Source: an uncultured virus (IMG/VR IMGVR_UViG_3300028552_000008) (taxonomy: Duplodnaviria > Heunggongvirae > Uroviricota > Caudoviricetes). Taken from it: a stretch of 20,000 nucleotides of DNA. The stretch lies in the IMG/VR virus record IMGVR_UViG_3300028552_000008; one strand, 5' to 3'. Shown here in pieces: positions 3,179 to 18,905 of this stretch. Under the pieces are notes generated by a model. That model ran no database searches and was not told the DNA's origin. It worked only from the letters and a program-made list of their open reading frames with translations. Every line of letters starts with the position of its first letter. The first letter of the stretch is position 1. The position numbers and the translations under genes are program-made.

Positions 3179-3223
3179 TTCTACATAATAGTGATTTAAT
3201 AATCGAAGACTAGACCCTTTCTT

Positions 3224-3631
3224 ATGACAATAACAAAAATAGCTAATAGATGGTATGACGAAAACAATAATAGCTGGTTATCAGAAGAAGCAGCTACTCA
3301 ATACTCACTTACCCTAACTAATTGTAGTAGGTGTAGTGATTGTAGTAATTGTATTGATTGTAGAGATTGTAGTAATTGGTGTAGTAATTGTAATAATTGT
3401 AGAGATTGTAGTTATTGTATATATTGTAGTGATTGTAGTTATTGTATATATTGTATTGATTGTAATATTTGTAGTGATTGTAGTAGTTGTATTAATTGTA
3501 GTAATTGTAGTGATTGTAGAGATTGTAGTAGTTGTATTGATTGTAGTGATTGTACTAATAATAAGAAGTATGAACCAGTAACTAGACCATTTATAGACTG
3601 TACTAACAGACTATTAGAACCAGATTTATGA
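3224..3631 (+). CDS. Cys-x-x repeat protein, paralog 1 (26 Cxx units), C-terminal tag NRLLEPDL
   Basis: Conserved N-terminal RWYDENNNSW...TLTNC head, 9-bp TGT-based repeat units. Confidence 0.85.
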   Translation: MTITKIANRWYDENNNSWLSEEAATQYSLTLTNCSRCSDCSNCIDCRDCSNWCSNCNNCRDCSYCIYCSDCSYCIYCIDCNICSDCSSCINCSNCSDCRDCSSCIDCSDCTNNKKYEPVTRPFIDCTNRLLEPDL

Positions 3632-3876
3632 CAAATATCACAGTACGAGATAAATATGACCAATCTATAGAAGTAGGAAATAATGTTATAGTAAAGTATT
3701 ATGGCAGTATTTATAAAGGAACTGTCATTAATATTAAACTAATAAATAGTACTGGGACTAGTACCAGTGATTTTTGTGCTCATTTAAGAGATTATTGGAT
3801 TAAAGTTATCATCCATTCACCTATTAGAGGAGATAAAGAGATAACTAGTAAATCAGGAGAAATAATAAGAATATGA
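3628..3876 (+). CDS. Small beta-barrel (SH3/KOW-like) hypothetical protein, untagged
   Basis: IEVGNNVIV...YKGTVINI pattern; ATGA overlaps at both ends. Confidence 0.7.
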   Translation: MTNITVRDKYDQSIEVGNNVIVKYYGSIYKGTVINIKLINSTGTSTSDFCAHLRDYWIKVIIHSPIRGDKEITSKSGEIIRI

Positions 3877-4145
3877 AATATAATCTAGTTCAAATTCGTA
3901 GTCATATAAAGAATCAACTTCGTGTTTCCTTTGAAGAAATTGAAATAGAAGGTGAAGTAATAGAAATCAGTTCACCAATGAATACTGGATTTTATTATTG
4001 CCTGGCTAAAAGAGGCAAGAAATATGCTTTTGATAGATTAAAGAAACATTTAATAAAAATGTATGATAAAGAAATTACAAAGATAACAAAAGAGTTAGAC
4101 ATGCTTAAAGCCGTAGAATATCCACATCGAAAAATAAGACATTAA
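3873..4145 (+). CDS. Hypothetical protein; a +1 frameshift near 4137 would append the tag DINDRKLEPDL
   Basis: 90-aa ORF; tag encoded out of frame at 4138-4173. Confidence 0.7.
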   Translation: MKYNLVQIRSHIKNQLRVSFEEIEIEGEVIEISSPMNTGFYYCLAKRGKKYAFDRLKKHLIKMYDKEITKITKELDMLKAVEYPHRKIRH

Positions 4146-4169
4146 TGATAGAAAGTTGGAACCAGACTT

Positions 4170-4601
4170 ATGACAATAACAAAAAGAGCTGATAGATGGT
4201 ATGACGAAAACGGTAATAGTTGGATAACTGAAGAACTAGCTACTACTGACTCTCCTACCCTAACTAATTGTTATAATTGTAGAGGTTGTAGTAATTGTAG
4301 AGATTGTAGTTATTGTATATATTGTAGTGATTGTAGTAATTGTATTAGTTGTATTAGTTGTAGTGATTGTAGTAATTGTAGTAATTGTTATAGTTGTATT
4401 GATTGTAGTAATTGTAGTGATTGTTATAGTTGTAGAGATTGTAGTAGTTGTATTGATTGTAGTAGTTGTAGTGGTTGTAGAGATTGTAGTAATTGTAATA
4501 ATTGTATTTATTGTAGTGATTGTACTAATAATAAGAAGTATGAACCAGTAACTAGACCATTTATAGACTGTACTAACAGACTATTAGAACCAGATTTATG
4601 A
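4170..4601 (+). CDS. Cys-x-x repeat protein, paralog 2 (29 Cxx units), tag NRLLEPDL
   Basis: Same head motif and repeat as paralog 1, identical tail. Confidence 0.85.
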   Translation: MTITKRADRWYDENGNSWITEELATTDSPTLTNCYNCRGCSNCRDCSYCIYCSDCSNCISCISCSDCSNCSNCYSCIDCSNCSDCYSCRDCSSCIDCSSCSGCRDCSNCNNCIYCSDCTNNKKYEPVTRPFIDCTNRLLEPDL

Positions 4602-5443
4602 AAGCACATTGGATCATAGAAAATTTTACAGATTCGGAGGATTACAGGGATTTAATTAAAGCAGTAAAAGATTTAGGCAAGGAATGCTTTGTAATAGATA
4701 AACGTAATCATTTTGATTTTAATCCTGCCTCATTTGTGGAAAATGAATGTGTAATAGTTCAAGGGTCAATTCAAATGGTTAAGAATATAGAATCTAGGTT
4801 ACCTAAAAATTGCTTTCCCATCAAATATTGCACCTTCAACAATTATCTTTGCTCGGTTTACTATCCTAAATTAAAAGACTTCCTATTTAATGATAAGTAT
4901 GTATTACTTCCGCTAAAAGAACTTAAAGAGAATAAGTTTGATTATTATCAGAAGTTTGGAAAAGAAGCACTTATATTTGTAAGACCGGATAGTGGAGAAA
5001 AGACATTTCAAGCCCAACTCTTAGATTTGCAGGATTTCGACAGATTTTGGACTAACTCTATAGCTTCCAGTACTTTAGATGATGATTTAGTACTAGTTTC
5101 TACGCCTAAAGATATAATAGGTGAGTGGCGTTTTATATGTTCAAAGTATAACGATGGGGAAATCATAACTCAATCTACTTATCGATATCAAGGCAAGTTA
5201 TGTTATATACCTGCTGCACCTGTTAAAGCAACTGAACTTTGTAAAAATATATTAAAGGTTCAATATTACCCAGACTCTGTTTTTTGCATAGATATCTGCC
5301 AGGCTGGGGATAACAAGTTCTATTTATTAGAATTAACCTCCTTTTCTAGTGCTGGTCTATATGCTACCGATAAAAAGAAGATAGCAACTAGAGTAAGTGA
5401 AATAACCGAATTTGAATATGGAAGAGAAATATTCTATAGGTGA
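4598..5443 (+). CDS. ATP-grasp domain protein (DUF4343/R2K-like)
   Basis: FVRPDSGEKTF, EWRF, CIDI and LLELTSFSSAGLY motifs typical of this ATP-grasp clade. Confidence 0.8.
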   Translation: MKAHWIIENFTDSEDYRDLIKAVKDLGKECFVIDKRNHFDFNPASFVENECVIVQGSIQMVKNIESRLPKNCFPIKYCTFNNYLCSVYYPKLKDFLFNDKYVLLPLKELKENKFDYYQKFGKEALIFVRPDSGEKTFQAQLLDLQDFDRFWTNSIASSTLDDDLVLVSTPKDIIGEWRFICSKYNDGEIITQSTYRYQGKLCYIPAAPVKATELCKNILKVQYYPDSVFCIDICQAGDNKFYLLELTSFSSAGLYATDKKKIATRVSEITEFEYGREIFYR

Positions 5444-5660
5444 TCTTGTTGAATTATTAAATTTAGGTGAAGGGGAGATCGTCTCTATAAAAAACACTTA
5501 TTATCATATGAGAATGTTGAATCATGTATCTATTGGTAAACGTGATTTAGATCCGGGAGATATACTTAATGTGTGGCCTGACGAAATAGTAAAAAAGATA
5601 GTAATTCTAAGACCTGATTATAGTAACTTAGATGAAAGAAGAATTGATATTGAATTATGA
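5418..5660 (+). CDS. SH3/KOW-like small protein, tag ERRIDIEL
   Basis: KYSIGDLV start motif; ATG at 5418 (TTG at 5412 also possible). Confidence 0.75.
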   Translation: MEEKYSIGDLVELLNLGEGEIVSIKNTYYHMRMLNHVSIGKRDLDPGDILNVWPDEIVKKIVILRPDYSNLDERRIDIEL

Positions 5661-5905
5661 ATGATTATAAGGTAGGTGATGTGATTGAGGCTTTTTATGT
5701 AGCATCTATTTATTGTACAGGTAAAATAGTAGAATTTAAGTTTAAGGGAGTTCTCATACGTATACTAGAAGACATGAATTACAATGATATAATATGTTAT
5801 CCTAGTAATACACAGTTATTTCTCCCATTTGAAAATATCATAGGGTTTAGTCAACTTATTAGAACAGAAAACATATATGAACGAAACCTTGACCCATATT
5901 TATAA
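5657..5905 (+). CDS. SH3/KOW-like small protein, tag ERNLDPYL
   Basis: YKVGDVI...GKIV. Confidence 0.75.
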   Translation: MNDYKVGDVIEAFYVASIYCTGKIVEFKFKGVLIRILEDMNYNDIICYPSNTQLFLPFENIIGFSQLIRTENIYERNLDPYL

Positions 5906-6155
5906 TATAGGTGATGAAGTTAGTGGGAATTATGCACAATTAGCTGAGTTTAAAGGATTTATAGTATCATATAAATTTTATTTCAATAAACCTTGGTATT
6001 ATGTACAGCTAACTGAACGCATATTTATACACAAAGAATTACCTATAGGTTGGATCATAGCTGTTTCAGAGATGGAAATTAAGGAAGTTAAAAAATTAAG
6101 AAAAGAAAACATATATGAGCGAAACCTTGACCCATATTTATAATATAGGTGATGA
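5866..6155 (+). repeat. 52-bp direct repeat (5866-5917 and 6104-6155, one mismatch) spanning gene junctions
   Basis: agaaaacatatatgaRcgaaaccttgacccatatttataatataggtgatga. Confidence 0.9.
5877..6143 (+). CDS. SH3/KOW-like small protein, tag ERNLDPYL
   Basis: YNIGDEV...FKGFIV. Confidence 0.75.
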   Translation: MNETLTHIYNIGDEVSGNYAQLAEFKGFIVSYKFYFNKPWYYVQLTERIFIHKELPIGWIIAVSEMEIKEVKKLRKENIYERNLDPYL

Positions 6156-6333
6156 GGTGGCATTTTATAGAGGTACTCATAGGTTTGAAGGTAGAATAAT
6201 AAATAGCGCAGCATTTCATGATCATTGGTGTGTTCAATTATTGAACTCTAAATTTATGTCAGTACATAAACAATGTTGTAATAAAATTAGAAAAGAAAAT
6301 CCTTTAGATAGGAAACTAGAGCTTGATTTATGA
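6115..6333 (+). CDS. SH3/KOW-like small protein, tag DRKLELDL
   Basis: YNIGDEV...FEGRII. Confidence 0.75.
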   Translation: MSETLTHIYNIGDEVAFYRGTHRFEGRIINSAAFHDHWCVQLLNSKFMSVHKQCCNKIRKENPLDRKLELDL

Positions 6334-6887
6334 CAATAACTAAAAGAGATAATAGATGGTTTGACGAAAACAATAATAGCTGGGATAGTGAAGAAGAAGC
6401 TACTCTATACTCACCTACCCTAACCGATTGTACTAGTTGTTTTAATTGTTATAGTTGTATTGATTGTAGTAGTTGTATTGATTGTAGAGATTGTAGTAGT
6501 TGTATTGATTGTAGTAATTGTAGAGATTGTACTAGTTGTGATAGTTGTAGTGGTTGCATTGATTGTAGTGGTTGTGTTGATTGTAGAGATTGTAGTGGTT
6601 GTAGTGGTTGTATTTATTGTATATATTGTAGTGATTGTAGTGAGTGTTATGGATGTAGAGATTGTAGTAATTGTAGTAATTGTTATAGTTGTATTGATTG
6701 TAGTAATTGTAGTGATTGTAGAGATTGTAATAATTGTAGAGATTGTAGTAGTTGTATTGATTGTAGAGATTGTAGTTATTGTAGTAGTTGTATTGGTTGT
6801 AATGACTGGACTAATAACATGAAATATGAACCGGTAATTAGACCATTTATAGACTGTACTAACAGACTATTAGAACCAGACTTATGA
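6330..6887 (+). CDS. Cys-x-x repeat protein, paralog 3 (42 Cxx units), tag NRLLEPDL
   Basis: Head RWFDENNNSW...SPTLTDC; longest repeat tract of the family. Confidence 0.85.
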   Translation: MTITKRDNRWFDENNNSWDSEEEATLYSPTLTDCTSCFNCYSCIDCSSCIDCRDCSSCIDCSNCRDCTSCDSCSGCIDCSGCVDCRDCSGCSGCIYCIYCSDCSECYGCRDCSNCSNCYSCIDCSNCSDCRDCNNCRDCSSCIDCRDCSYCSSCIGCNDWTNNMKYEPVIRPFIDCTNRLLEPDL

Positions 6888-7126
6888 CACAAAAGGAATA
6901 TAAAGTAGGAGATGTGGTTGATTTTGAGGTTAGTAATTTGAAAGGAATAGGAACTATAACACCATATAATGGAGACATAATGTATGCTGTAATTATAGAG
7001 GAATTTCCCGGTATACCTAGTAGAACTAAATGGCATATATTTCCTGATGAAATAACAGGTATACATGTTGAACCTAGAATAGAATTTGACATCACAAAAG
7101 ATAGAAGATTAGAGTTAGAACTATGA
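6884..7126 (+). CDS. SH3/KOW-like small protein, tag DRRLELEL
   Basis: YKVGDVV...GIGTI. Confidence 0.75.
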   Translation: MTQKEYKVGDVVDFEVSNLKGIGTITPYNGDIMYAVIIEEFPGIPSRTKWHIFPDEITGIHVEPRIEFDITKDRRLELEL

Positions 7127-7377
7127 ATGAATTTGAAGAAGGAATGAAAGTTATAGTTACTTTTTATAGCGGTAATAAAGCTGTAGGAATAATAATATGG
7201 TATGCTGATGATACTTCCTATGAAGTTGAAGTCTTGCATTATACAGAAATTAATGATAAAGAGAAAACGGTGGAGACATTTCCAAATCCTTATAGTAACA
7301 TTAACTTCATAAATACCGAAGCAATACCAAGTAGAACAGAGAATCCTTTTGATAGAAAATTGGAACCAGATCTATGA
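7123..7377 (+). CDS. SH3/KOW-like small protein, tag DRKLEPDL
   Basis: FEEGMKVIVTFYSGNKAVGII; apparent paralog of 8789..9055. Confidence 0.75.
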   Translation: MNEFEEGMKVIVTFYSGNKAVGIIIWYADDTSYEVEVLHYTEINDKEKTVETFPNPYSNINFINTEAIPSRTENPFDRKLEPDL

Positions 7378-7625
7378 GTGAATATAAAGTAGGAGATGTT
7401 GTAGTTTATTGGTCTATTAGTTCTAACTCAGAGGCAGTTGCTAAGATAGTCGAAACCGATTGGACTAGTTTTAATTATTTAAGGGTAATTATAATAAAAC
7501 ATGATCATCTTAGTGCAGGTACATCAATTTATTTAACAGAGAGTGAAATAATAAGATTGGACGGTCCCATTATAAAACACTGTTTTGATATTATGTTAGA
7601 TAGAAGATTAGATTTGGAACTATAA
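7374..7625 (+). CDS. SH3/KOW-like small protein, tag DRRLDLEL
   Basis: YKVGDVV...VAKIV. Confidence 0.75.
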   Translation: MSEYKVGDVVVYWSISSNSEAVAKIVETDWTSFNYLRVIIIKHDHLSAGTSIYLTESEIIRLDGPIIKHCFDIMLDRRLDLEL

Positions 7626-7757
7626 GTAACTGTTTTACCTTATATACCACATTCTCTACTCCAATCTACCACTCTCTCCCCATAATCCTCCCCATCACTC
7701 ACAATTTCAACTACTTACGAAACTTGTATTAACTCTATATAATAACTTTCCAACTAT

Positions 7758-8024
7758 ATGAATCCTAAAGTAGAACTAATAAAAATAAACAAAATCCCAA
7801 TTAGTATAGGTGTGGATAAATACGTATTCCCTATTAAAAATAGTATAGTACATCATAACCAAGACTCACTACTAGGCTCTACTATAGTATCAGATCCAGG
7901 TTATAGTGTATTAGGATTTCGCCGTGACCCTAAAGCTCTATCCAACCATAATCTAGCCTTTGAACTAGCAGAACTAGCCTGGAAAATACAAGAATTTGAT
8001 CTTATATATGAAAACACTAGCTAA
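7758..8024 (+). CDS. Hypothetical protein
   Basis: 88-aa ORF following a non-coding gap. Confidence 0.65.
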   Translation: MNPKVELIKINKIPISIGVDKYVFPIKNSIVHHNQDSLLGSTIVSDPGYSVLGFRRDPKALSNHNLAFELAELAWKIQEFDLIYENTS

Positions 8025-8241
8025 CTACCTCAATGACCCGGATAATGACTTAACTGTTGAACTTGATGCTGAATTATTAAAGAAGATTCAACTAGATACT
8101 CTTTATAGTCTATTAATTAAGAGTACTGAAGCCTTAAATCTGCCTGCTATCTCTAAGGAGCATACTGATATAATGGTAATTCATTTAATCCTTAATGAAA
8201 TAGAACTTTTGAAATATGGATTCAACATTAAAGAAGTGTAA
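8008..8241 (+). CDS. Hypothetical protein
   Basis: ATG at 8008 preferred over TTG at 7996. Confidence 0.65.
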   Translation: MKTLANYLNDPDNDLTVELDAELLKKIQLDTLYSLLIKSTEALNLPAISKEHTDIMVIHLILNEIELLKYGFNIKEV

Positions 8242-8264
8242 GAAACTAATAACCTGGGCTGAGC

Positions 8265-8465
8265 ATGAAATTAAAGATTGAATACTTGAAACTACTATAT
8301 AAAAGAGTACTTAACTGTATATACTATGCTTGTTTGACTGACCAATACTTAAGTTGTATAGTACTAATTATAGTTTATCCTATATCTCTTATTATAGTGA
8401 ATCTATATAACAAAGTTGTAATTAAAGATAGTAAACCTAATTGTTGGAATGATTTTTTCTTCTAA
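8265..8465 (+). CDS. Small putative membrane protein
   Basis: Hydrophobic stretch LSCIVLIIVYPISLIIVNL. Confidence 0.55.
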   Translation: MKLKIEYLKLLYKRVLNCIYYACLTDQYLSCIVLIIVYPISLIIVNLYNKVVIKDSKPNCWNDFFF

Positions 8466-8468
8466 GAT

Positions 8469-8792
8469 ATGACAATAACAAAAAGAGCTGATAGATGGTA
8501 TGACGAACGAGGTAATAGTTGGTTATCAGAAGAATTAGCTACTTTATACTCACCTACCTTAACTAATTGTAGTTATTGTGATGATTGTAGTAATTGTAGA
8601 AATTGTAGTAGTTGTAGTAATTGTAGTAGTTGTAGAGATTGTATTAGTTGTTATGATTGTAACGATTGTAAATATGTCTGTTGCCTGACAGACAGAACAA
8701 GATTTACTGCTCAATTCGAACCTGCTACAGAAGATACTATAATAAGACCTGAACTTGACATTAATAATAGAAGACTTGAAATTGAACTATGA
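8469..8792 (+). CDS. Cys-x-x repeat protein, paralog 4 (12 Cxx units), tag NRRLEIEL
   Basis: Head RWYDERGNSW...SPTLTNC. Confidence 0.85.
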   Translation: MTITKRADRWYDERGNSWLSEELATLYSPTLTNCSYCDDCSNCRNCSSCSNCSSCRDCISCYDCNDCKYVCCLTDRTRFTAQFEPATEDTIIRPELDINNRRLEIEL

Positions 8793-9055
8793 ATGAATTT
8801 AATATAGGTGACATTATTTCTGTAACATTTACTTTTTCTGGTAATCAAGCTATTGGTGTTGTAATTGACGATGATAATTTTATGATCACGTCTTATACTA
8901 AAGTACTTAAACCAGACTATGTAGTTAAAGGTTTATCAGACCGTGAACCTCTTTATGGATGTAATATAAGGAATATTCAACTAGTATCACGGAGTATTAG
9001 ACAAGAAGTTAGACAAGAAGACCCATTTTCCCGTAACCTAGACCCATATCTATGA
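8789..9055 (+). CDS. SH3/KOW-like small protein, tag SRNLDPYL
   Basis: FNIGDIISVTFTFSGNQAIGVV. Confidence 0.75.
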   Translation: MNEFNIGDIISVTFTFSGNQAIGVVIDDDNFMITSYTKVLKPDYVVKGLSDREPLYGCNIRNIQLVSRSIRQEVRQEDPFSRNLDPYL

Positions 9056-9501
9056 ATGAAGAATACCTTAAACTAGTTAAAGAACTGCAAACTACAGTAA
9101 AAATTGAATTGGACAAAGCTCCACTAAAAGATAATTACTCCCCAAACTATCCTGAAGCATCTGTTAATACCTTGGCAGTTAATATAGGTATTATTATAGA
9201 TGATAGATTTAGTGTTAATGACTTATCCAATACTAACACTATAAACCCTCCTATTAAGCTCTATTGGCTCCAGGTCACGTCCTATAATGATTTTGAAGTC
9301 TTCCTGTCTACTAGAGGTATTCCAGCCTATATCTCATTTGACGGTGATCTAGGCCCTAAAGTAAAGGATGGTGAGGATTGCGCCAAACTACTTGTAAAGG
9401 TATGTAAGGCCAATAAGTTGAAAGAACTACCTCAATACGAATGTCACTCCCCTACCCTCTCTAAGAAACAGAAGATAGAAGAGATACTATTAAACTATTG
9501 A
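9052..9501 (+). CDS. Cyclic-phosphate-processing receiver (REC)-like domain protein
   Basis: IIIDD...W..VTSYNDF...ISFDGDLG...DGEDCAKLLV...CHS resembles the ISFDHDLG...TGYD...HS family signature, with His replaced by Gly. Confidence 0.65.
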   Translation: MNEEYLKLVKELQTTVKIELDKAPLKDNYSPNYPEASVNTLAVNIGIIIDDRFSVNDLSNTNTINPPIKLYWLQVTSYNDFEVFLSTRGIPAYISFDGDLGPKVKDGEDCAKLLVKVCKANKLKELPQYECHSPTLSKKQKIEEILLNY

Positions 9502-9504
9502 TTA

Positions 9505-9914: not shown

Positions 9915-10112
9915 ATGGCTCAATTAATAATAAAGAATATTACCATGAATCAAGCCAAAGTATTAGCTAGTTACTACCAAAGACAAGGGGAACAACACGC
10001 TGAAGTATGGTTTGAAGACAGAAACGAAGAAACACCAATAGTAGATGTATCAAAATGTCCTTGGTTAATAGTAGATGAAAAAGAAGAAACTGTAACTATT
10101 ATTTGTAAATGA
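9915..10112 (+). CDS. Hypothetical protein
   Basis: The ORF-track start at 9891 lies inside the tRNA; ATG at 9915 used instead. Confidence 0.7.
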   Translation: MAQLIIKNITMNQAKVLASYYQRQGEQHAEVWFEDRNEETPIVDVSKCPWLIVDEKEETVTIICK

Positions 10113-10441
10113 AACTAACAAAACGAGAAAATGATAGATTCTATGATGAAAACAATAATAGTTGGATAACAGAACAACTAGCTACTGTATATTCACCTAC
10201 GCTGATTAATTGTAGATATTGTAGTGATTGTAGTAATTGTAGTAATTGTAGTAGTTGTATTAGTTGTTATATATGTGTTAATTGTAGTAATTGTAGTGAG
10301 TGTTATAGATGTAGAGATTGTATTAGTTTGTATAGACATTACAACGAAGAAAAATTAAAACCTCAGAAGTATGACACTGAAGATACTATAATAAGACCTG
10401 AACTTGACATTAATAATAGAAGACTTGAAATTGAACTATGA
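10109..10441 (+). CDS. Cys-x-x repeat protein, paralog 5 (13 Cxx units), tag NRRLEIEL
   Basis: Head RFYDENNNSW...SPTLINC. Confidence 0.85.
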   Translation: MKLTKRENDRFYDENNNSWITEQLATVYSPTLINCRYCSDCSNCSNCSSCISCYICVNCSNCSECYRCRDCISLYRHYNEEKLKPQKYDTEDTIIRPELDINNRRLEIEL

Positions 10442-11418
10442 CCACCAATAATTTAGAAGAATTTGGTACTAAACTACCAGAACATACAGCTAAATCTAAT
10501 CAGATTATGATACCTGATGCTATCCTTTATGCTGCACCAGAAGAAATCAATGTAGCTAATGGATCAGCTCAAACTCCTACTCAATGGACGGAGCCAGTTT
10601 CAGGAATGTTTTTATCCACACCTGAAACAATTAAGAAGTTACCGTCTAATGTATATAAGTATGTAGCTTATTCAGATAATAAATGGGGTTTTCTGAAAGT
10701 TAATATCAATGTTGACGAACTACTATTACTACCTGATAGTACTTCAGATCTAGTACTTCAAGAGATTCAAACCTTTCTAGACAATGCGGAAACCTTTAAA
10801 TACTATGATGTATTGCATAGAAGAGGGTTCTTATTCTATGGTCCAGCAGGTTCAGGCAAGACTTGCTTAGTACAACAAATCATTAAGAAGGTGATTGACC
10901 AGAATGGAGTGATTTTGCTTTGTGATAACCCACAAGCTATCGAACTAGGTTTAAGAGACCTTAGAGCAGTTGAGCCAGATAGATTCATAGTTTGTCTATT
11001 CGAAGATATTGATGCCTTGATTCAGAGATATGGAGAGAAGGAGATTCTTGCTATATTAGATGGTGAAAGTCAAATCAACAAAGTCTTGAATATAGGAACA
11101 ACTAATTACCCTGAAGTATTGGATAGGAGAATCATTAGACCTCGTAGATTTGATATGGTGATTAAGATTGACTGGCCTAGTGAAGCAGTTAGACGACATT
11201 ATTTTAAGAATAAGCTTAAGATTGATGACAAAGAACTGGGTAAGTGGGTTAACGCCACGGATAAGTTCTCCTTCGCTGCTTGTGCTGAGTTGATGATTAG
11301 TGTTAAATGTCTGGGTAAGGATTTTGAGAAAGCAGTGGAACATTTACGTGAATTAATGAAACATAAACCAGATAGCCGGGATTTTAACAGCCCTGCAGAC
11401 TTTAATATAGGACATTAG
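10438..11418 (+). CDS. AAA+ ATPase (classic clade, single AAA domain)
   Basis: Walker A GPAGSGKT, Walker B LFEDID, second region of homology TTNYPEVLDRRIIRPRRFD. Confidence 0.9.
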   Translation: MTTNNLEEFGTKLPEHTAKSNQIMIPDAILYAAPEEINVANGSAQTPTQWTEPVSGMFLSTPETIKKLPSNVYKYVAYSDNKWGFLKVNINVDELLLLPDSTSDLVLQEIQTFLDNAETFKYYDVLHRRGFLFYGPAGSGKTCLVQQIIKKVIDQNGVILLCDNPQAIELGLRDLRAVEPDRFIVCLFEDIDALIQRYGEKEILAILDGESQINKVLNIGTTNYPEVLDRRIIRPRRFDMVIKIDWPSEAVRRHYFKNKLKIDDKELGKWVNATDKFSFAACAELMISVKCLGKDFEKAVEHLRELMKHKPDSRDFNSPADFNIGH

Positions 11419-11522: not shown

Positions 11523-11990
11523 ATGAAACTAACAAAAAGATATAATAGATGGTATGACGAAAATTATAATAGTTGGGATACTGAAGAATCAGCTACTCAA
11601 TACTCACCTACCCTAACTAATTGTAGTAGGTGTAGTGATTGTAGATATTGTAGTCTTTGTAATTATTGTAGTAATTGTAGTAATTGTAATGATTGTATTA
11701 CTTGTATTAATTGTAGTGATTGTACTCGTTGTATTAATTGTAGAGGTTGTATTTGTTGTAATCAGTGTATAAGTTGTAGTGATTGTAGTAATTGTAGTAG
11801 GTGTACTAGTTGTAATCGTTGTAGCGGTTGTAGCGGTTGTAGTGATTGTACTCGTTGTATTGATTGTAGTTGGTGTAGTTTACTTATAGATAGAATAAGA
11901 TTTTTCCCACAAACTGGCCCTGACAACTCGGAACTAATAACTAGAAAAGAAATAGCATTAACAGATCGAAATCTGGAACCATTTTTATGA
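11523..11990 (+). CDS. Cys-x-x repeat protein, paralog 6 (29 Cxx units), tag DRNLEPFL
   Basis: Head RWYDENYNSW...SPTLTNC. Confidence 0.85.
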   Translation: MKLTKRYNRWYDENYNSWDTEESATQYSPTLTNCSRCSDCRYCSLCNYCSNCSNCNDCITCINCSDCTRCINCRGCICCNQCISCSDCSNCSRCTSCNRCSGCSGCSDCTRCIDCSWCSLLIDRIRFFPQTGPDNSELITRKEIALTDRNLEPFL

Positions 11991-12316
11991 AAATAAAACC
12001 AGGCTTTGAAGAAGAATTTGAAGTAGCCAAGACTTTAATACATAAACATACTGATGCTATAATCAAATATGTTAATGATTGGAGTTTGGCGATGGAGAAC
12101 TGTATAGCTGAAGGTCAATCATTAAAAGATATAGCCATGCCTTTAAGTGAACAGATTTCTATTATAGATAGCAGGCCTGACCATGTTAAAGTTATGGCCG
12201 CTATACTATTAATGAACTGTTGGATTTATGGGGATGAGTTGACTGAGATATTTCATCCTAGCCACCTTAACTTTGAGCTGGAACTGCTAAAACAATTAAA
12301 GTTTGCTAATTACTAG
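11987..12316 (+). CDS. Hypothetical protein
   Basis: 109-aa ORF with ATGA overlap. Confidence 0.7.
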   Translation: MKIKPGFEEEFEVAKTLIHKHTDAIIKYVNDWSLAMENCIAEGQSLKDIAMPLSEQISIIDSRPDHVKVMAAILLMNCWIYGDELTEIFHPSHLNFELELLKQLKFANY

Positions 12317-12645: not shown

Positions 12646-12709
12646 AAATATCATTATCATTGTTGTATATAATAACACTATTCACAAAAACCTTGAATTT
12701 ACAAACTAA

Positions 12710-12874
12710 ATGAAACCAGACAAAAAGAAGAAAGACCTTTTAATGCTACTATGCGTTATTGGTGGGATGAGCTTGTTTGCAGGCATGACACATACCCCAA
12801 TACTATTAGTAGCAATTCCGGTTTACCTTTATCTCTATCTAGACGACCTTGATAAAGATATCAATGAAGATTAA
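12710..12874 (+). CDS. 54-aa putative membrane protein (not in ORF track)
   Basis: MKPDKKKKDLLMLLCVIGGMSLFAGMTHTPILLVAIPVYLYLYLDDLDKDINED. Confidence 0.6.
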   Translation: MKPDKKKKDLLMLLCVIGGMSLFAGMTHTPILLVAIPVYLYLYLDDLDKDINED

Positions 12875-12880
12875 CACAAA

Positions 12881-13465
12881 ATGAACAATAAACTAACTGT
12901 ATTTTTAGACTTGGATGGCACTATTGTAGACTGGTTGGATAAGATGAGAAAAGAATGTAAATTACCAATCAGTGCATTTACTCAATTTTATGAGAATCCA
13001 GACTCTCTAACTGAGGAAGCAATTACTGAATTATTTGGAGGAGAAAATAAATTTCGCAAACTAATGTATAACAGAAGTGCTAAATTCTGGTATACTCTTG
13101 ATAGCTTTTGGTGGATGGAATATCTGATAGTCCAGTTAAAAAATAACTTTAATGAAGTTGCCTTCTTTACTAGCCCTGGAGATAACCCTGAAGCTGGGAA
13201 GGGTAAGATTTTATGGCAACAAAAGCATTATCCAGAGATTCCTCTTATTATGGGGAAACACAAGCATTTATGTGCTGGTCCTAATAAAGTATTAATAGAT
13301 GATAACTATAGGAAGATTGGTAGGTTTATTGAATATGGAGGTTATGGCATTCTTTGGCCTAATCAGTTTCATGTAGCTAAGTTTAATGCCGGTAGAACGT
13401 ACTCACTTATTTCTGATATAGTAGCTGAAATTCTAGCTTACCAGAAATACCATACCTTGATTTAA
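12881..13465 (+). CDS. HAD-superfamily 5'(3')-deoxyribonucleotidase-like protein
   Basis: Motif I FLDLDGTIVDW, motif II FFTSP, motif III K, motif IV LIDDN. Confidence 0.85.
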   Translation: MNNKLTVFLDLDGTIVDWLDKMRKECKLPISAFTQFYENPDSLTEEAITELFGGENKFRKLMYNRSAKFWYTLDSFWWMEYLIVQLKNNFNEVAFFTSPGDNPEAGKGKILWQQKHYPEIPLIMGKHKHLCAGPNKVLIDDNYRKIGRFIEYGGYGILWPNQFHVAKFNAGRTYSLISDIVAEILAYQKYHTLI

Positions 13466-13466
13466 T

Positions 13467-14138
13467 ATGTCTGACCTCATTTTTAGTCGTGAAGTGCTTA
13501 AGTTGAATAAAAATCATTTACCTATAGGATTCTTCACGCCTAAAGATGTATTTACAGCTTTGGCTAATTATATGGTTGATAGAAGACAGAACTATATACT
13601 GGATGTTAAAGGTAATAAAATGCGCAAGATGCTGGCTTATGATATTACTTATGAACAGATAGATGATGACCTATACGACTTCTCCAAACTTCTTAATATG
13701 CGGGTAGTTGACTGGGATGAATGGATAACCTTGCCAGTAAGGAGTTATGATCTATTCGTACATACCCCTAACCTTGTAGTAAGAGTGCCTAGAGTAGTTG
13801 TAAGTCTGGCTTGTGAAGAAATGCCTAAAGTTCGATATAATACTAGCTTAAAATCTGTTTATAACCTGTATGAAGGTATTTGTCAGATAAGTAAGAAAAG
13901 ATTAACAATGAAGGAGGCTAGTCGTGATCATGTAATACCTGTCTCTAAAGGTGGCGAAAATAAGCTAAATAACATCATCTTGGTCGATAGATGTATTAAT
14001 AGCAGAATGGGTAATAAGTATAAACATGAGTTAGGATTGCCAGAGATTAAACCTAAAACCCCTAAAACCATGCCGGTAAAAGATACATTAAGAAATATTA
14101 AAGGTGTTCCGGAATGGGAATACTGGTTAAAAAGATGA
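13467..14138 (+). CDS. HNH endonuclease (McrA-like)
   Basis: N-terminal VLKLN..H.P, VPRVV, and SRDHVIPVSKGGENKLNNI...INSRMGN. Confidence 0.85.
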   Translation: MSDLIFSREVLKLNKNHLPIGFFTPKDVFTALANYMVDRRQNYILDVKGNKMRKMLAYDITYEQIDDDLYDFSKLLNMRVVDWDEWITLPVRSYDLFVHTPNLVVRVPRVVVSLACEEMPKVRYNTSLKSVYNLYEGICQISKKRLTMKEASRDHVIPVSKGGENKLNNIILVDRCINSRMGNKYKHELGLPEIKPKTPKTMPVKDTLRNIKGVPEWEYWLKR

Positions 14139-14512
14139 GTACTATATTAAAGAGTGAATATCTTTATAATGATAATGATAATCATGATAAAGTATATAAT
14201 GTGACGCTAAAAGAAGTGGAAGGACAAATCACAACAGGTACAGTTATTGATTTTGTAGTTACTGCCGAATATGGTAGGAGAGGTTCGGTTTTAAAGACCA
14301 TAACTAAATATGATGGCATTAGCTATGGTAAAGCTAAAGAAATTTATACATCTTTAATAGCAGAAAAAATAGCCAAAGGTTACAATAAAGGACCTAAAAG
14401 AAAGAAGGTCAAATCCGAACCTGAATTGAAACCTAAACTGAAACCAAAGAAGTTGGAAACCCAGGAGCTAAACGATGTACCTTTTAGAAGATTAGACTTT
14501 GGTGACTTATGA
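14135..14512 (+). CDS. WGR-domain protein with tag variant FRRLDFGDL
   Basis: DKVY...AEYGRRGS...EKIAKGY; ATG at 14135 overlaps the HNH stop. Confidence 0.75.
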   Translation: MSTILKSEYLYNDNDNHDKVYNVTLKEVEGQITTGTVIDFVVTAEYGRRGSVLKTITKYDGISYGKAKEIYTSLIAEKIAKGYNKGPKRKKVKSEPELKPKLKPKKLETQELNDVPFRRLDFGDL

Positions 14513-15015
14513 ATAACAACCTTACTCTTTTTAGTTATGTTGATAATACTACTTTAACTTTGGCTCAAGGTAGGTTAATTAGTAGTTTTGCCAGACATTT
14601 TGGGTATCCTAATAAAGTTATGAGAGGATTGATAGATATGGATAGGGCGGTACAGGAAAGACTTATTCACTTTGATTTGCCAAATTACGTTATTAGAGAT
14701 ACCTATTATGTAGTTAATGTTAAATTATCCATTAATAAGCTGTTTTCTGAGAAGTCTTTCTATAAAAGCGATCTGTATTGCCAGTATACCTTAAAAGCCT
14801 CAGACCCGGCTAAAACAGATTCGGTATTGGTTGTTTCCAGCCCAGATCTTTATATAGTTGTTCCTTATGATATTATAGTTAATGGTAAAACAGCTTTGGA
14901 TCTTTATGGAGGGGGTATATTTTTGAATTATGAAGGCTGTACTGGTCAGGTTCTTATACCTATTAAGCACTATTTAGATGGTAAGTTCCCAGACCCCTCC
15001 CCTCCCTCAGAATAA
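14509..15015 (+). CDS. Hypothetical protein
   Basis: 168-aa ORF with ATGA overlap. Confidence 0.7.
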   Translation: MNNNLTLFSYVDNTTLTLAQGRLISSFARHFGYPNKVMRGLIDMDRAVQERLIHFDLPNYVIRDTYYVVNVKLSINKLFSEKSFYKSDLYCQYTLKASDPAKTDSVLVVSSPDLYIVVPYDIIVNGKTALDLYGGGIFLNYEGCTGQVLIPIKHYLDGKFPDPSPPSE

Positions 15016-15176
15016 TGGTTTTTTTAGGTATAATAATCTGAATAGGAGTTTTTTGACTTGCAGATTCATTTTTAGTACCTAACAAGTACTGGTTTATCTT
15101 CAAATCATTAAACATGCCTGATAGACAAATTAGACAAACCAAACAAATTGGCCCAAAAGAGAAACGCTTCATATGA
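15015..15176 (+). pseudogene. Small membrane-protein frame interrupted by two in-frame TGA codons
   Basis: MVFLGIII*IGVF*LADSFLVPNKYWFIFKSLNMPDRQIRQTKQIGPKEKRFI*; TAATG overlap at the start and ATGA overlap at the end. Confidence 0.4.
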
Positions 15177-15820
15177 AATCTATATTTAAAACAAAAATCG
15201 AACCAACCCTCAAAATTGTCTCTTTCAGAGAGTTTGCTACTGAGGTTGTTCCAGCTATTATAAGGGAACAGCCTTCTTTCAAGTTCACTGATGGTTGGTG
15301 TTTAGGTGAAATTGAAAGAATCACATTGGATCGAGGAATTGATACGTTAATGGGTGGTGGAGATAATAACTATCATTATACTGAACTTGATCCTGATACC
15401 AAAGTGCATATTACTACTACAGGCTTTCGTGTATCTCAAGATAAGTTACAATTCATCCTTGTTCTTCCTACAAAAGCTCTTGGAAACTTTAGAACCCTCG
15501 CTGAATTGGCAGCATATCAGAAGGAAAACAGATTTCACATGTTGATTGATTGTAAGTTTAATGAGTCTGGAGATATGGCTTGGATTTTTGAAAAGACTAA
15601 GAAAGGCATTATTACTCATGTGTTAACTGCTTTTGAAGACTTTGACACTGATCCTACTGTAAATCTTAACAAACAACCAGTTCATTTTTTACGTTCTGGC
15701 AGTATCCAAATCGACTTGCAACTGAGTCAGCTAGATCAATATACATCCGGAGAAGGAATCTTCACATTTATGTCACCTCCTTCTTGGAATGCCTGGGAAG
15801 GAATCTTTAAACGGCTCTGA
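15173..15820 (+). CDS. Hypothetical protein
   Basis: 215-aa ORF. Confidence 0.75.
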   Translation: MKSIFKTKIEPTLKIVSFREFATEVVPAIIREQPSFKFTDGWCLGEIERITLDRGIDTLMGGGDNNYHYTELDPDTKVHITTTGFRVSQDKLQFILVLPTKALGNFRTLAELAAYQKENRFHMLIDCKFNESGDMAWIFEKTKKGIITHVLTAFEDFDTDPTVNLNKQPVHFLRSGSIQIDLQLSQLDQYTSGEGIFTFMSPPSWNAWEGIFKRL

Positions 15821-15975
15821 GATTAAGTTTTCTGAAAAGTCAAATTTGGTGGGGAAACATACTAATACTGAATAAAGTGTGAGCTTTGAGTAAGCTCTTC
15901 AGTGTTGGTGCTAGGTAGGTGATTGGTTGTTTGTTAGGAATTTTCCAATCACCTACCTTTAATATTTTTAGCTTT

Positions 15976-16155
15976 GAACTGGTGCTGTATTAAATCTGGC
16001 TTACTAGACTGAATAGCAATATGGCATGAGCTGTTTATGTTGTCCACTCTTAACCAACTGTCCCGAATTGTCAATACAAGGATAGTTCTGTTAAGACGAT
16101 TGAGTCAGTAAGAAGGGTTCCTTGGCCGGGAATTCTTCTGTTGCAGCATCAGTTC
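15976..16155 (+). ncRNA. Candidate structured ncRNA element A (180 nt, multibranch)
   Basis: 14-bp closing stem GAACTGGTGCTGTA/TGCAGCATCAGTTC with nested stems; G-U pairs indicate the + strand. Confidence 0.55.
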
Positions 16156-16163
16156 TTTAATTT

Positions 16164-16339
16164 AGGCAGCATTGCAATAATTTTTAACTAGAAAAGCTGG
16201 TAGAGCGCGGATTCTTGACTAGCTGTATGTAGAGTTGCAGGATTAAACCGTGATCGCTGCAAACCAATCAGTATTAGTTAAATGGACTAATTCTTGCTAG
16301 TTAGGCATTAAGATACCTCCTATTATTGCAGTGCTGTCT
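16164..16339 (+). ncRNA. Candidate structured ncRNA element B (176 nt, cloverleaf-like junction on a long stem)
   Basis: 18-bp closing stem AGGCAGCATTGCAATAAT/ATTATTGCAGTGCTGTCT; inner TAACTAG/CTAGTTA closes three hairpins. Confidence 0.55.
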
Positions 16340-16448
16340 TCTTTTAGTCTTCTTTTTTAAGCGGTGTGTAACAGGAACCTCTAGTTTTAAAGCAAAAAAC
16401 GGATTGATGAGGTAGTTGCATATTGGTGCTTCTTAAAGGAGAAGGCTT

Positions 16449-16480
16449 GCACCTAGTCTAGTACTAGGTGCTTCAATTTT
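16449..16480 (+). terminator. Possible intrinsic terminator or processing hairpin
   Basis: GCACCTAGT-CTAGT-ACTAGGTGC followed by TTCAATTTT. Confidence 0.45.
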
Positions 16481-16512
16481 AGTTAACATTAACAACCACA
16501 ATTACTTAAACT

Positions 16513-17955
16513 ATGCAAAAAATAAAAGCTATAATCTTAGTTGGATTGAACTATGGTGATGAGGGGAAGGGATCTGTAACTGATAGTCTAGTCCAACACT
16601 TCAAGTCAGATTTGGTGGTTCGCTATAATGGTGGATTCCAAGCTGCCCACAATGTCCACAATGAGACAGGACATCACACCTTCCATCAGTTCGGTTCTGG
16701 TACCTTGAGTGGGGCTAGGACTTATATAGGTAGTGAAGTTATTATCTCGCCTAAATTGATGATGGATGAGGCTGACAGCTTGTATAAGCTTGGAGTAGAT
16801 AAACCATTATCTCTCATACATATATCGCCTAACTGCAGGATTACTACGCTATACCATATAGCGTTGAATCAAATGAGAGAATTAGCTCGCACAAATGTAC
16901 ACGGCAGTACTGGAAATGGTATTGGAGTTACTGCAGAATTAGCTAGACAACGTAGTAGTTGGGTCTTGAGAGTAAGAGATTTAAGTAAACATAAAAGTGA
17001 TGTCCTCCAGATTCTTAATTCAATCTATGAATACTGTTTTTTGAAATGCGTTGAATTGCAACATGATTATAAATTGGAAAGTCAAGCAGTAGAGGACTTG
17101 ATGCTTACCTTTAACATACCTCAATTAAACAACCAACTATACGATATTTACCTTGAATGGTTAAATCAGGTCAACGTTTGCCATAGTCTTGATATTATCA
17201 AAGACAGTAACCTTCCTATTTTTGAAGGAGCACAAGGAGTATTGTTGGATAAACTTCATGGTTTTCATCCTTACACTACCTGGTCTGATACTACTCCTAC
17301 CTATGCTATGGATATGTTGTATATATTAGGTATCCCTATACAGAATACTTATAAGTTAGGCATTACCAGGACTTTTATGACTAGGCATGGTAATGGTCCT
17401 CTTCTGACTGAAACAAATGATTTGAATGCTTTAATAGCACATGATCATAATAAGACAGGTAAATTCCAAGGATGTCTTAGGGTAGGTAATTTAGACTTGA
17501 TGGCTTTGCAATATGCTATTCAAAAGTGCGGTGGTCTTAATGGTCTGGCAGTTACTCACTGTGATTATTTAAGTAATCGTGAAGTACGTACAGTTTGCTG
17601 GACTTATGCTGGTATAGATTTGCTTAGTTACAATTGCAAGGAAGAAGCTGGTTTGGAAGCCTGGAATCTTACTAAGGCCTACTCTAAGAATAAGGCCCTG
17701 CTATATGAAGTTCCAGATTTATTAGCTGAAATTCAAAAGGTTACGAAGTTACCTATAGTAATAACTTCACACAGTAAATTCACAAAAGACAAATTATATA
17801 TGGGACTAGAACAAAATGAACTCCCGGCAACGTATACTCCAGTTAAAACTGCAGTACCGATTGTTGAGGAAGTGAGCAATCCTGAAGAAATTCAGATTAA
17901 ACAAGCTGATACGTTTCAACAAACTGAAGCAGCAAAACCAACAACAACTAATTAA
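16513..17955 (+). CDS. purA: Adenylosuccinate synthetase (divergent PurA type, not PurZ)
   Basis: GDEGKG, RYNGGFQAAH, GSTGNGIG, FEGAQGVLLD, HPYTTWS, TRHGNGP. Confidence 0.9.
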   Translation: MQKIKAIILVGLNYGDEGKGSVTDSLVQHFKSDLVVRYNGGFQAAHNVHNETGHHTFHQFGSGTLSGARTYIGSEVIISPKLMMDEADSLYKLGVDKPLSLIHISPNCRITTLYHIALNQMRELARTNVHGSTGNGIGVTAELARQRSSWVLRVRDLSKHKSDVLQILNSIYEYCFLKCVELQHDYKLESQAVEDLMLTFNIPQLNNQLYDIYLEWLNQVNVCHSLDIIKDSNLPIFEGAQGVLLDKLHGFHPYTTWSDTTPTYAMDMLYILGIPIQNTYKLGITRTFMTRHGNGPLLTETNDLNALIAHDHNKTGKFQGCLRVGNLDLMALQYAIQKCGGLNGLAVTHCDYLSNREVRTVCWTYAGIDLLSYNCKEEAGLEAWNLTKAYSKNKALLYEVPDLLAEIQKVTKLPIVITSHSKFTKDKLYMGLEQNELPATYTPVKTAVPIVEEVSNPEEIQIKQADTFQQTEAAKPTTTN

Positions 17956-17957
17956 TT

Positions 17958-18905
17958 ATGGGTTTTTCACATTATGATGCAACTATAACTAGAAGTTACA
18001 TCTCTTCTAGAACTGCTGCTGGCGTATCTGTAATGGATCATGCCGTAGCAGTGAATGAAGGAAGAGCTGAAAATAAGGCTCATCCAACGCTTGATATGAG
18101 AATTCCTAACCGGGCTGGTAGGATAATTAGAGAGAGTCTTGATAGTGAGGCTCATCCTAATAGTTTGCCAATCGCTGTATGTCTTGATACTACTGGTTCG
18201 ATGAGCACAATACCTTCCAAAGTAGTTTTGCAGTTGCCTAAGCTGATGGATTTGCTAATTAAAGCAAAGTATGTCTCTGATCCTCATATTCTGTTCGGGG
18301 CTGTAAATGATGCAACTACTTATCCTGCAGCTGCTCTTGAAGTCGGCCAGTTTGAGTCCGGTAATCAGATGGATGGTTGTCTTACCAATATTTTAGTCTC
18401 CCAAGGTGGCGGAGGTGGTACTCAATGCGAAAGCTATGAGTTAATCATGTTTGTGCTGGCAAGATTGACTGAATTGGATAGCCTGAAAAAACGTAATAAG
18501 AAAGGCTACTGTTTTATTTTGGGTGATGAAAAACCCTATTCTTTTGTTAGTAAGCTAGAGGTTAAGGAGTGGATTGGAATTGACATTGAAGCTGACATTC
18601 CTACTACCACAATTTTGGAGGAATTGAAGCAGAAGTTCAATGTTTACTGGTTGTTCCCTAGTAATGCTCAGAATAGCCGAGATAGAGGAGTTAAGGCTCA
18701 TCTTCAAGGATTGTTTGGGCAGAATCTTATCATGCTGAAAGATGAAGAGACTATCTGTACTACCATAGCAGCTACTATTGCTATTAATGAAGGTAGAGAT
18801 CCCCGTACTGTAACCGAAGAATTGAAGGATGGATTTAAGGACAATCCTGATGATATCCAAGTCATCATTGACTCCATACCGCCTCGTAGATTTGATGACT
18901 TGTAA
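17958..18905 (+). CDS. von Willebrand factor A (vWA) domain protein with tag variant PRRFDDL
   Basis: MIDAS-like LDTTGSM, GQFES, GGGG...ESYEL, FILGDE. Confidence 0.85.
   Translation: MGFSHYDATITRSYISSRTAAGVSVMDHAVAVNEGRAENKAHPTLDMRIPNRAGRIIRESLDSEAHPNSLPIAVCLDTTGSMSTIPSKVVLQLPKLMDLLIKAKYVSDPHILFGAVNDATTYPAAALEVGQFESGNQMDGCLTNILVSQGGGGGTQCESYELIMFVLARLTELDSLKKRNKKGYCFILGDEKPYSFVSKLEVKEWIGIDIEADIPTTTILEELKQKFNVYWLFPSNAQNSRDRGVKAHLQGLFGQNLIMLKDEETICTTIAATIAINEGRDPRTVTEELKDGFKDNPDDIQVIIDSIPPRRFDDL

Follow-up and report, generated by a model that had tools for sequence, protein, structure and literature searches.

A C-terminal peptide tag shared by unrelated protein families of a large peat phage, and its probable derivation from the tail of a vWA protein

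A 20,000-nt stretch of DNA from an uncultured virus (Caudoviricetes; IMG/VR record IMGVR_UViG_3300028552_000008; hereafter the window) was analysed for a short peptide motif, R-x-[LI]-[DE]-x-x-L, which lies at the extreme C-terminus of many of its predicted proteins and which an earlier sequence-only reading had proposed as an addressing or tagging signal. This shared C-terminal tag is real, and its enrichment is statistically overwhelming. The motif ended 14 of the 41 plus-strand genes of the window (0.0038 expected from composition), and the window proteins had 1 internal match in 5866 residues (0.55 expected). In the genome rebuilt from overlapping contigs, the strict tag was found on 46 of 351 called genes (13%, about one in eight; 0.019 expected) and internal matches numbered 2, with 3.8 expected; the comparison of C-termini with composition and internal frequency that the sequence-only reading had called for thus came out far in favour of the tag. 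The preferred reading, at a probability of about 50%, is that the carriers share a docking peptide for a single receptor and that this peptide arose from the tail of a vWA protein encoded in the same window.

Form of the tag, its carriers and selection on the peptide

Translation of the plus-strand genes placed all 14 C-termini listed earlier at gene ends, and the two variant tails described with them were recovered as well, RRLDFGDL on the WGR-domain protein (gene end at 14512) and RRFDDL on the vWA protein (gene end at 18905); the ligase, PurA-like, HAD, HNH, AAA and ATP-grasp proteins of the window were without the tag, as had been said. Among six-frame stop-to-stop open reading frames (ORFs) of at least 40 codons in the window, the motif ended 14 of 64 on the plus strand and 0 of 79 on the minus strand. 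In the rebuilt genome 52 ORFs ended in the tag or a variant of it, all on the plus strand; 48 had the strict form, one of them (VIESRL) probably by chance. Tagged ORFs were few at 74–119 kb and most lay at 145–210 kb; in the structural and RNA polymerase region, which takes up the first 60 kb, the strict tag was absent from all 62 called genes. In five contigs a degenerate DNA pattern (motif plus stop codon) matched the coding strand 13, 19, 33, 18 and 26 times and the other strand 0 times, and when reversed as a control it gave 0–1 matches. An 80-aa ORF (contig L034:13462-13704) ends in GEDRALDPFN, with Asn in place of the terminal Leu, and may be a decayed tag or a tolerated variant.

In 47 tags the near-fixed positions were R at −7, L at −5 (46/47), [DE] at −4 and L at −1 (47/47), all of them partly set by the criteria by which the tags had been selected. 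Position −8 was D, N or E in 42/47; −6 was K (16), R (15), L (10) or N (6) and never Gln (0/47); −3 was P (25), L (11) or I (9); and −2 was D (24), E (14), Y (6), F (2) or N (1). Conservation extended upstream, with R at −15 in 28/47 and E at −13 in 19, and the tag is therefore longer than 7 residues, at about 15. Its form may be written as [IVT]-R-x-E, 3–5 residues, then [DNE]-R-[KRLN]-L-[DE]-[PLI]-[DEYF]-L-COOH, which stands behind a variable linker, free of the folded domain. Because hydrophobic residues (−5, −3, −1) alternate with acidic ones (−4, −2), the tag would be read as an extended strand.

Selection had been placed on the peptide rather than on the DNA, and this was borne out. Synonymous codons vary as reported: Arg is encoded by AGA, AGG, CGA, CGG and CGT and Leu −5 by TTA, CTA, TTG, CTT and CTG, and over the 47 tags both positions matched genome usage (R −7: AGA 34, AGG 7, CGA 4, CGG 1, CGT 1; L −5: TTA 21, CTA 10, TTG 6, CTT 5, CTG 4), the 24-nt tails being distinct in 40 of the 47. 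Between strains, 13 orthologue pairs had 0/91 changes in the last 7 residues and 4/208 in the last 16, while the protein bodies differed at 133/1364 positions (9.8%). In the small beta-rich family (14 members, 17–38% identity to the first member), R −7 and L −1 were the sole invariant columns. The tag is also no by-product of ATGA overlaps with the next start codon, as had been argued from the terminal Leu being retained ahead of TAA stops (confirmed at 5905, 6143, 7625 and 18905). Such an overlap was seen in 32 of the 41 tagged genes and in 20 of the 102 untagged ones of the same arm, yet the tag is kept in the 9/41 tagged genes that lack one, and the last residue of untagged genes with the overlap may be any of eight (L, I, P, K, R, G, T, S). 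No Shine–Dalgarno signal was found in the rebuilt genome (26/237 genes, against 13% of random 17-mers), so the tail cannot be a ribosome-binding site; the missing signal suggests a host that does not rely on Shine–Dalgarno.

With the last 18 residues removed, the 52 tagged or variant ORFs fell into 21 BLASTP clusters. The tagged genes make up about 12 unrelated families, the variant tails not counted; no similarity was detectable between families, in line with the earlier statement that the carriers are unrelated. The clusters hold 27 Cys-X-X repeat proteins, about nine small beta-rich proteins (spread over 5 clusters but alignable as one family), one pair of 140-aa proteins and about nine orphans. 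Variant tails are found on DUF3150, WGR and vWA proteins and on a 45-aa membrane ORF. All carriers but one are without a signal or membrane segment.

Among the Cys-X-X paralogues of the rebuilt genome 25/26 are tagged; the sole untagged one (171 aa, L047:19397-19912, minus strand) ends in LVEHIIKTKI. A profile search returned 2004 representatives at E up to 0.001 for this family, which is without a Pfam model, and the tag was on 4 of the 150 best representatives, all near-identical to this phage, the others ending in unrelated sequences. As distant homologues lack it, the tag is an add-on, a portable element. The family has a conserved 33-residue N-terminal domain (R-W-Y-D-E-N-x-N-S-W ... S-P-T-L-T-N-C) and variable repeats; an AlphaFold2 (AF2) model of the 107-aa protein, built with 24 paralogues, gave a mean predicted local distance difference test score (pLDDT) of 57, with moderate confidence only in the N-terminal 30 residues. 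One relative (P0125 of the family set P0121–P0270, 836 aa) bears an S-adenosylmethionine (SAM) lyase domain. Compared with precursors of ribosomally synthesized and post-translationally modified peptides (RiPPs), the Cys-X-X proteins have the conserved N-terminal domain and variable repeats; the other carriers are without a leader. No RiPP enzyme family adjoins the Cys-X-X genes, and a radical-SAM-like ORF lies >4 kb from the nearest copy.

The vWA gene module and the lineage of the tag

The vWA protein (315 aa, 17958..18905, plus strand) ends in the variant tail PPRRFDDL and has a DTTGS motif at residues 77–81 that resembles a metal ion-dependent adhesion site (MIDAS). A search returned 325 relatives at E up to 0.001. 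The closest end in PPRRLDDI, PPRRIDDF, PPRHLDLDL and ERLLDSDL; distant ones, mostly from actinomycetes and Ktedonobacteria, end in VERL, GVDRL or TERI, and the vWA of another jumbo-phage group ends in DDGVIKL, so that a conserved acidic-plus-terminal-Leu tail is kept in distant relatives. On sister-lineage metagenome contigs the gene order is HNH–WGR (ending RRLDFDDI)–167 aa–PurA-like–vWA (ending RHLDLDL), and another vWA of that lineage ends in ARALDPDL; these two vWA ends are exact tags. In the window the WGR-domain protein (132 aa, 14114..14512, plus strand) ends in FRRLDFGDL, the counterpart of RRLDFDDI in the sister lineage. Presence of the tails in the sister lineage indicates that the vWA and WGR tails predate the tag expansion. 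Whether WGR and vWA homologues elsewhere lack the tail, as the sequence-only reading had put it, was answered in part: relatives do carry tails, some of them exact tags, and the ends of distant vWA proteins differ. Judged from these sequences, the WGR and vWA tails are probably the older form rather than odd variants, and the tag was probably derived from the C-terminal tail that vWA proteins of a kinase–vWA–PurA-like module conserve. Cys-X-X proteins, small beta-rich proteins and at least ten other families would then have received the vWA/WGR tail in this lineage.

A vWA fold with a MIDAS-type motif is supported by the AF2 model (mean pLDDT 94.7), by Foldseek matches and by conservation of DTTGS, in which D77, T79 and G80 were invariant and S81 at least 90% conserved in 92 sequences; a Pfam scan of the protein gave no match. 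The best Foldseek matches of the predicted fold among solved structures were integrin beta I domains, the Ku80 vWA bound to the Ku-binding motif of XLF, and NorD; the integrin and Ku80 domains are vWA domains that bind peptides. The last residues of the model had a pLDDT of 58, which suggests that the tail is not packed on the vWA domain.

In jumbo phages the neighbourhood runs kinase-like (some with a J-domain match)–vWA–PurA-like, and R2K ATP-grasp, ligase, AAA or HAD genes often come next; in actinomycetes it runs NUDIX/NrtR–J/kinase-like–vWA–PurA-like. Of 78 other viral loci of ~20 kb taken around the vWA gene, 68 contained a PurA-like gene, adjacent or near-adjacent to vWA in those inspected. 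The vWA gene was found in 220 phage records, of which 201 were mycobacteriophages; in Mycobacterium phage Wally the order is Ser/Thr kinase gp258–gp259–PurA-like gp261 (L251). Further module loci are L107:8406-14115, L060:8867-13014 and L135:5910-10426, with 16513-18905 in the window. A kinase-like member was not found among the ORFs of the rebuilt genome with a hidden Markov model of 52 kinase-like vWA neighbours (E up to 10). The PurA-like adenylosuccinate-synthetase homologue of the window (480 aa, 16513..17955, plus strand) is untagged and a candidate partner; it matched PurA models at 177 bits, below their cut-offs, and PHROG 1211. Against the PurZ model of the 2-aminoadenine pathway it scored lower (NF038379, 59 bits against a cut-off of 300). 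It has a C-terminal extension of ~60 residues.

The tag is confined to this phage lineage in IMG/VR. A search with the Cys-repeat family gave 28 loci on IMG/VR contigs, all of one lineage. A DNA pattern with 15 specified bases, which covers one subset of the tag codons, occurred in 34 stretches in 2.9 million IMG/VR contigs: 11 contigs of this lineage accounted for 32 stretches, and the other 2 were single matches elsewhere. Around the vWA genes of the 78 other viral loci the tag pattern occurred once. Megablast of 9 kb and tblastn of one Cys-X-X protein against a phage collection gave no match.

Genes of the window and the rebuilt genome

All genes of the window given here lie on the plus strand; the positions of the core tag codons follow the protein length. 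Cys-X-X repeat proteins ending in CTNRLLEPDL are encoded at 3224..3631 (135 aa; 3608-3628), 4170..4601 (143 aa; 4578-4598) and 6330..6887 (185 aa; 6864-6884), those ending in IRPELDINNRRLEIEL at 8469..8792 (107 aa; 8769-8789) and 10109..10441 (110 aa; 10418-10438), and one ending in TDRNLEPFL at 11523..11990 (155 aa; 11967-11987). The genes that end at 4601, 10441 and 11990 overlap by ATGA with the R2K ATP-grasp, the AAA and the Tad4-like gene, respectively. Tagged small beta-rich proteins are encoded at 5412..5660 (82 aa, DERRIDIEL; 5637-5657), 5657..5905 (82 aa, YERNLDPYL, TAA stop; 5882-5902), 5877..6143 (88 aa, YERNLDPYL, TAA stop; 6120-6140), 6115..6333 (72 aa, LDRKLELDL; 6310-6330), 6884..7126 (80 aa, KDRRLELEL; 7103-7123), 7123..7377 (84 aa, FDRKLEPDL; 7354-7374), 7374..7625 (83 aa, LDRRLDLEL, TAA stop, 130 nt to the next gene; 7602-7622) and 8789..9055 (88 aa, FSRNLDPYL; 9032-9052). 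The predicted starts of two genes of this family overlap the preceding tail by 28 nt in another frame (5877-5905, 6115-6143), and these tails would be dual-coding unless a later TTG start is used. An untagged paralogue of the family (82 aa, 3628..3876) ends in GEIIRI.

Pfam matches in the window were to a ligase, an R2K-clade ATP-grasp, a classical AAA ATPase, NT5C/HAD, HNH, a weak WGR and the PurA-like enzyme. The R2K-clade ATP-grasp (281 aa, 4598..5443; PF18299 R2K_2, 33.9 bits, above the cut-off of 26.2) and the classical-clade AAA ATPase (326 aa, 10438..11418) are both untagged and lie within the tagged array; the former is a candidate tag-modifying or tag-binding enzyme and the latter a candidate receptor. 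Interspersed with the tagged genes are several ORFs of a counter-defence or RNA-repair kind, with a cREC_REC domain at 9052-9501, a weak PTH2-like match at 1773-2120 and a Tad4-like match (Thoeris inhibitor family, 43.6 bits) at 11987-12316. For two ORFs between the WGR and PurA-like genes the ESM Atlas gave weak leads (jelly-roll-like clusters; SUFU 0.81), which were not used.

The window and three contigs could be joined over mismatch-free overlaps (0 differences in 59,816 nt and in 14,997 nt; 100% identity over 91,796 nt), and the rebuilt genome is a 217,476-bp circle whose ends meet in a 127-nt overlap within a duplicated gene. Over 13.7 kb of the part compared, a 218,290-bp metagenome contig was 100% identical to it. 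The phage is a very divergent myovirus with a tail sheath, an intein-bearing head protease and genes for a split multisubunit RNA polymerase, and it was found in 15 peat DNA runs at no less than 0.93 of sampled words. A simple k-mer search for promoters upstream of structural, replication and accessory-arm genes gave no clear shared motif.

Hint/LAGLIDADG (intein-type) insertions were seen in the head protease region, in RNA polymerase pieces, in an SNF2 helicase and in another large ORF (L031:783-3341, L031:10816-13155, L031:15485-17206, L032:1105-3960, L035:5172-7583). Three neighbouring ORFs at L035:16987-19804 (contig G002 136987-139804) encode a JAB-like peptidase (165 aa), a 93-aa protein and a ThiF/E1-like protein (203 aa); the last weakly matches a PRTRC ThiF model, and the three are a possible ubiquitin-like conjugation set of the phage. 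The last ORF of the window (19527-20000) has a second copy in opposite orientation in the structural and RNA polymerase region (L031:4376-5767), with 97.8% protein identity over 93 matched residues (query 65-157); contigs end at this duplication, and in three runs the RNA contigs pass from 19728 into different sequence. At 19028-19049, too, RNA-library contigs from three runs break off, and their continuation resembles part of a tRNA anticodon arm; other strains may have an insertion there, possibly a tRNA gene.

Docking, alternative readings and known systems

As a docking peptide, the tag would be a portable C-terminal short linear motif that brings about 47 small accessory proteins to one common receptor. 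It would be bound as an extended strand that presents a hydrophobic face (L −5, −3, L −1) and an acidic face (−4, −2), and Arg −7 and the free carboxylate of the last Leu would be used as well. Given an origin in the vWA tail, the receptor would most likely be whatever binds that tail. It may be a host protein or belong to the module itself, where the vWA metal site, the AAA ATPase and the PurA-like enzyme are candidates. Integrins bind LDV-type ligands, and by analogy the vWA metal site could bind the L-[DE] core of the tag. Complex prediction of the AAA ATPase, the vWA protein, the tagged 84-aa protein and Mg gave 0.56, 0.13 and 0.12 in separate runs (mark 0.32, no controls), a result that counts neither for nor against docking. 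A wider proposal is put forward tentatively: a 7–16-residue 'zip code', taken from the vWA docking tail, may route the ~47 proteins to one phage-built destination as a proteome-scale address code. Such a destination might be an assembly built on vWA and AAA proteins, a compartment or, for co-injection, the inside of the virion, and new cargo would join by merely acquiring the tail.

Terminal targeting peptides are already known as a kind; what is new is a phage with one on 13% of its genes and in a dozen families. If the tag is a docking peptide, it would show how a large phage organizes its accessory proteome via a transferable 7–16-residue label, and it would provide a ready-made, genetically portable recruitment tag, a handle on the function of ~47 proteins and of the very large undescribed Cys-X-X family, and a first functional clue to the kinase–vWA–PurA-like triad of jumbo phages, >200 mycobacteriophages and actinomycetes. 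The idea is directly testable and deserves experimental follow-up.

Several points weigh against a common docking function. Two expanded paralogue families, the 27 Cys-X-X and ~9 small beta-rich proteins, make up most of the count, and the tagged genes all come from one lineage, so that there is no independent evolutionary replicate. The vWA protein is itself tailed, which fits a client as well as a hub. Spacing from Arg to the terminal Leu is 7 residues in the WGR and DUF3150 tails and 5 in the vWA tail, compared with 6 in the strict tag, which sits uneasily with a reader that would gauge distance from the free carboxylate. Pfam PDZ, TPR and sliding-clamp domains had no match among the 241 phage ORFs. 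The gene counts come from a simple ORF caller and from a genome joined from several metagenome contigs, and its circle was closed on the 127-nt overlap in a duplicated gene. On the favourable side, 30, 28, 28 and 17 of 30 window bins were covered by RNA-library contigs in four peat runs, but RNA libraries may hold DNA and this coverage cannot rank genes.

A role as a degron or unfoldase handle is improbable. The free acidic-hydrophobic tail would mark early accessory proteins for an AAA+ machine, the phage AAA protein or a host protease, and would time the removal or remodelling of its carriers, as the bipartite ssrA tag does. Such a role agrees with a tail that is unstructured, terminal and two-part and ends in Leu, and with a classical-clade AAA gene that lies within the tagged array and overlaps a tagged stop; the best NCBIfam matches of this ATPase were PAN, Cdc48 and FtsH, all weak and far below cut-offs. 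However, conserved enzymes and module proteins (vWA, WGR) are also tailed, the AAA protein is not linked to a protease domain and, by eye, is without an aromatic-hydrophobic-Gly pore loop between Walker A and B, and a 15-residue motif with an invariant Arg and acidic residues exceeds typical degron needs.

A similarly small chance is given to a loading signal by which small proteins would enter the capsid for co-injection, or a phage-built compartment. Many of the carriers are small, fast-evolving accessory proteins encoded beside genes of counter-defence type (Tad4-like, cREC, PTH2-like), the peptide is terminal and linker-separated, and giant phages are reported to package tens of different proteins (PMC7411985, PMC5694885). 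Against loading, the tagged genes are grouped with those for replication and repair, on the strand opposite to the structural module. Related giant phages package RNA polymerase, yet the RNA polymerase pieces are among the 62 genes in the first 60 kb, of which none is tagged. In T4, moreover, the known capsid targeting sequence is N-terminal and cleaved by the prohead protease.

It is quite unlikely that the tag is a substrate or client mark of the R2K ATP-grasp (4598-5443), which would bind or extend the free carboxylate in the manner of RimK or tubulin-tyrosine ligase. The R2K gene does lie within the array, overlapping the stop of a tagged gene, and beside PurA-like and vWA genes in another jumbo phage (L107). 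The R2K clade is predicted to comprise protein-peptide ligases, with phage members (PMC4431377), and binding by its archetype Cdc123 requires the C-terminus of its client eIF2-gamma (PMC8844851). In the near-identical strain G006, however, which keeps 26 pattern matches, the R2K gene was missing from the 41-kb contig in synteny and from two others, and this weakens the 'conjugating enzyme' option named in the sequence-only reading. Relatives of 50–72% identity are widespread (445 matches) whereas the tag is lineage-confined, and three actinomycete vWA loci keep the conserved tail with no R2K among the neighbours scanned. A phmmer comparison of the window proteins with the 78 viral vWA loci was insensitive, in that it gave R2K at 0 loci though Pfam finds R2K in L107.

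Mimicry of a host docking motif, by which the phage proteins would have converged on one host hub such as the beta sliding clamp or a PDZ protein, has only a slight chance. Positions −5 to −1 of the tag, L-[DE]-[LIP]-x-L, resemble the L-[SD]-L-x-L of the clamp-binding consensus (QL[SD]LF or QLxLxL). L stands at −5 in 46/47 and at −1 in 47/47, but −3 is Pro in 25/47; the Gln position holds Gln in 0/47, and it is hard to see why ~47 different small proteins should compete for the clamp. A terminal hydrophobic residue with D/E or an aromatic at −2 likewise fits PDZ ligands of class II/III (L −1 in 47/47; D, E, Y, F or N at −2), but bacterial PDZ proteins are mostly periplasmic and all carriers but one are without a signal or membrane segment.

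That the peptide has no function and the shared end is a DNA or RNA feature (a ribosome-binding site, a recombination junction or gene conversion among tandem duplicates) is highly improbable and largely refuted, for although ATGA overlaps are commoner in tagged genes and tandem paralogues are frequent among them, the tag codons are as variable as those of the genome at large, the tag persists in genes that lack the overlap, the genome has no Shine–Dalgarno signal, the carrier families share no DNA or protein similarity, and the reverse strand and control patterns gave 0–1 matches.

The tag had not been recognized as a described signal, and no equivalent was found in the literature searched or among the motif classes tested. 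Like the ssrA/SspB system, it is a two-part, unstructured C-terminal peptide with a hydrophobic end and a free carboxylate; it differs in being gene-encoded rather than added by tmRNA, in being acidic and in having no LAA-like end, the 47/47 tags ending in [DEYFN]-L after P, L or I. The T4 capsid targeting sequence is comparable as a short, transferable peptide by which a large phage directs small proteins, some of them anti-defence, to one place; the tag, however, always stands at the very C-terminus, and nothing points to its cleavage. Encapsulin cargo-loading peptides are short C-terminal peptides behind a linker on unrelated cargo, as the tag is, and are read by one receptor and transferable in principle. 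Their consensus is Gly/Ser/Leu-rich and unrelated in sequence, the ~47 carriers here are far more, and no family match to an encapsulin shell gene was found among the 241 phage ORFs (Pfam).

In the beta-clamp motif, too, an L-[acidic]-hydrophobic-x-L stands at the extreme C-terminus and many partners share one pocket; the tag is without Gln, has a Pro-rich −3, an invariant Arg −7 and an upstream R-x-E, and its carriers are not DNA enzymes. No sliding clamp was found in Pfam/PHROG scans of the phage ORFs and no PDZ reader domain in the Pfam scan. In ESCRT-III, many proteins, both paralogous and non-paralogous, end in an R/L/acidic motif (the MIM) that docks on the MIT domain of one AAA ATPase, Vps4, and an AAA gene sits within the tagged array of the phage. 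MIM1 is an amphipathic helix, (D/E)xxLxxRLxxL(K/R); membership of the tag was rejected on its different spacing and the Pro at −3 in 25/47, the setting is a bacterial virus, and a MIT domain was not detected in the phage AAA protein (Pfam). Peptide ligands of vWA domains (LDV/RGD and the 'internal ligand' of integrins; Ku80–XLF) are comparable in that the L-[DE] core of the tag could give a carboxylate to the MIDAS metal, and differ in that the phage vWA carries a tail itself and that its binding of the tag is hypothetical. The last comparison is with the kinase–vWA–PurA-like triad of Bixzunavirus, jumbo phages and actinomycetes: the PurA-like and vWA genes of the window belong to the same neighbourhood, in which the vWA tail ends in Leu, Ile or Val, but only this phage lineage has spread that tail onto dozens of proteins.

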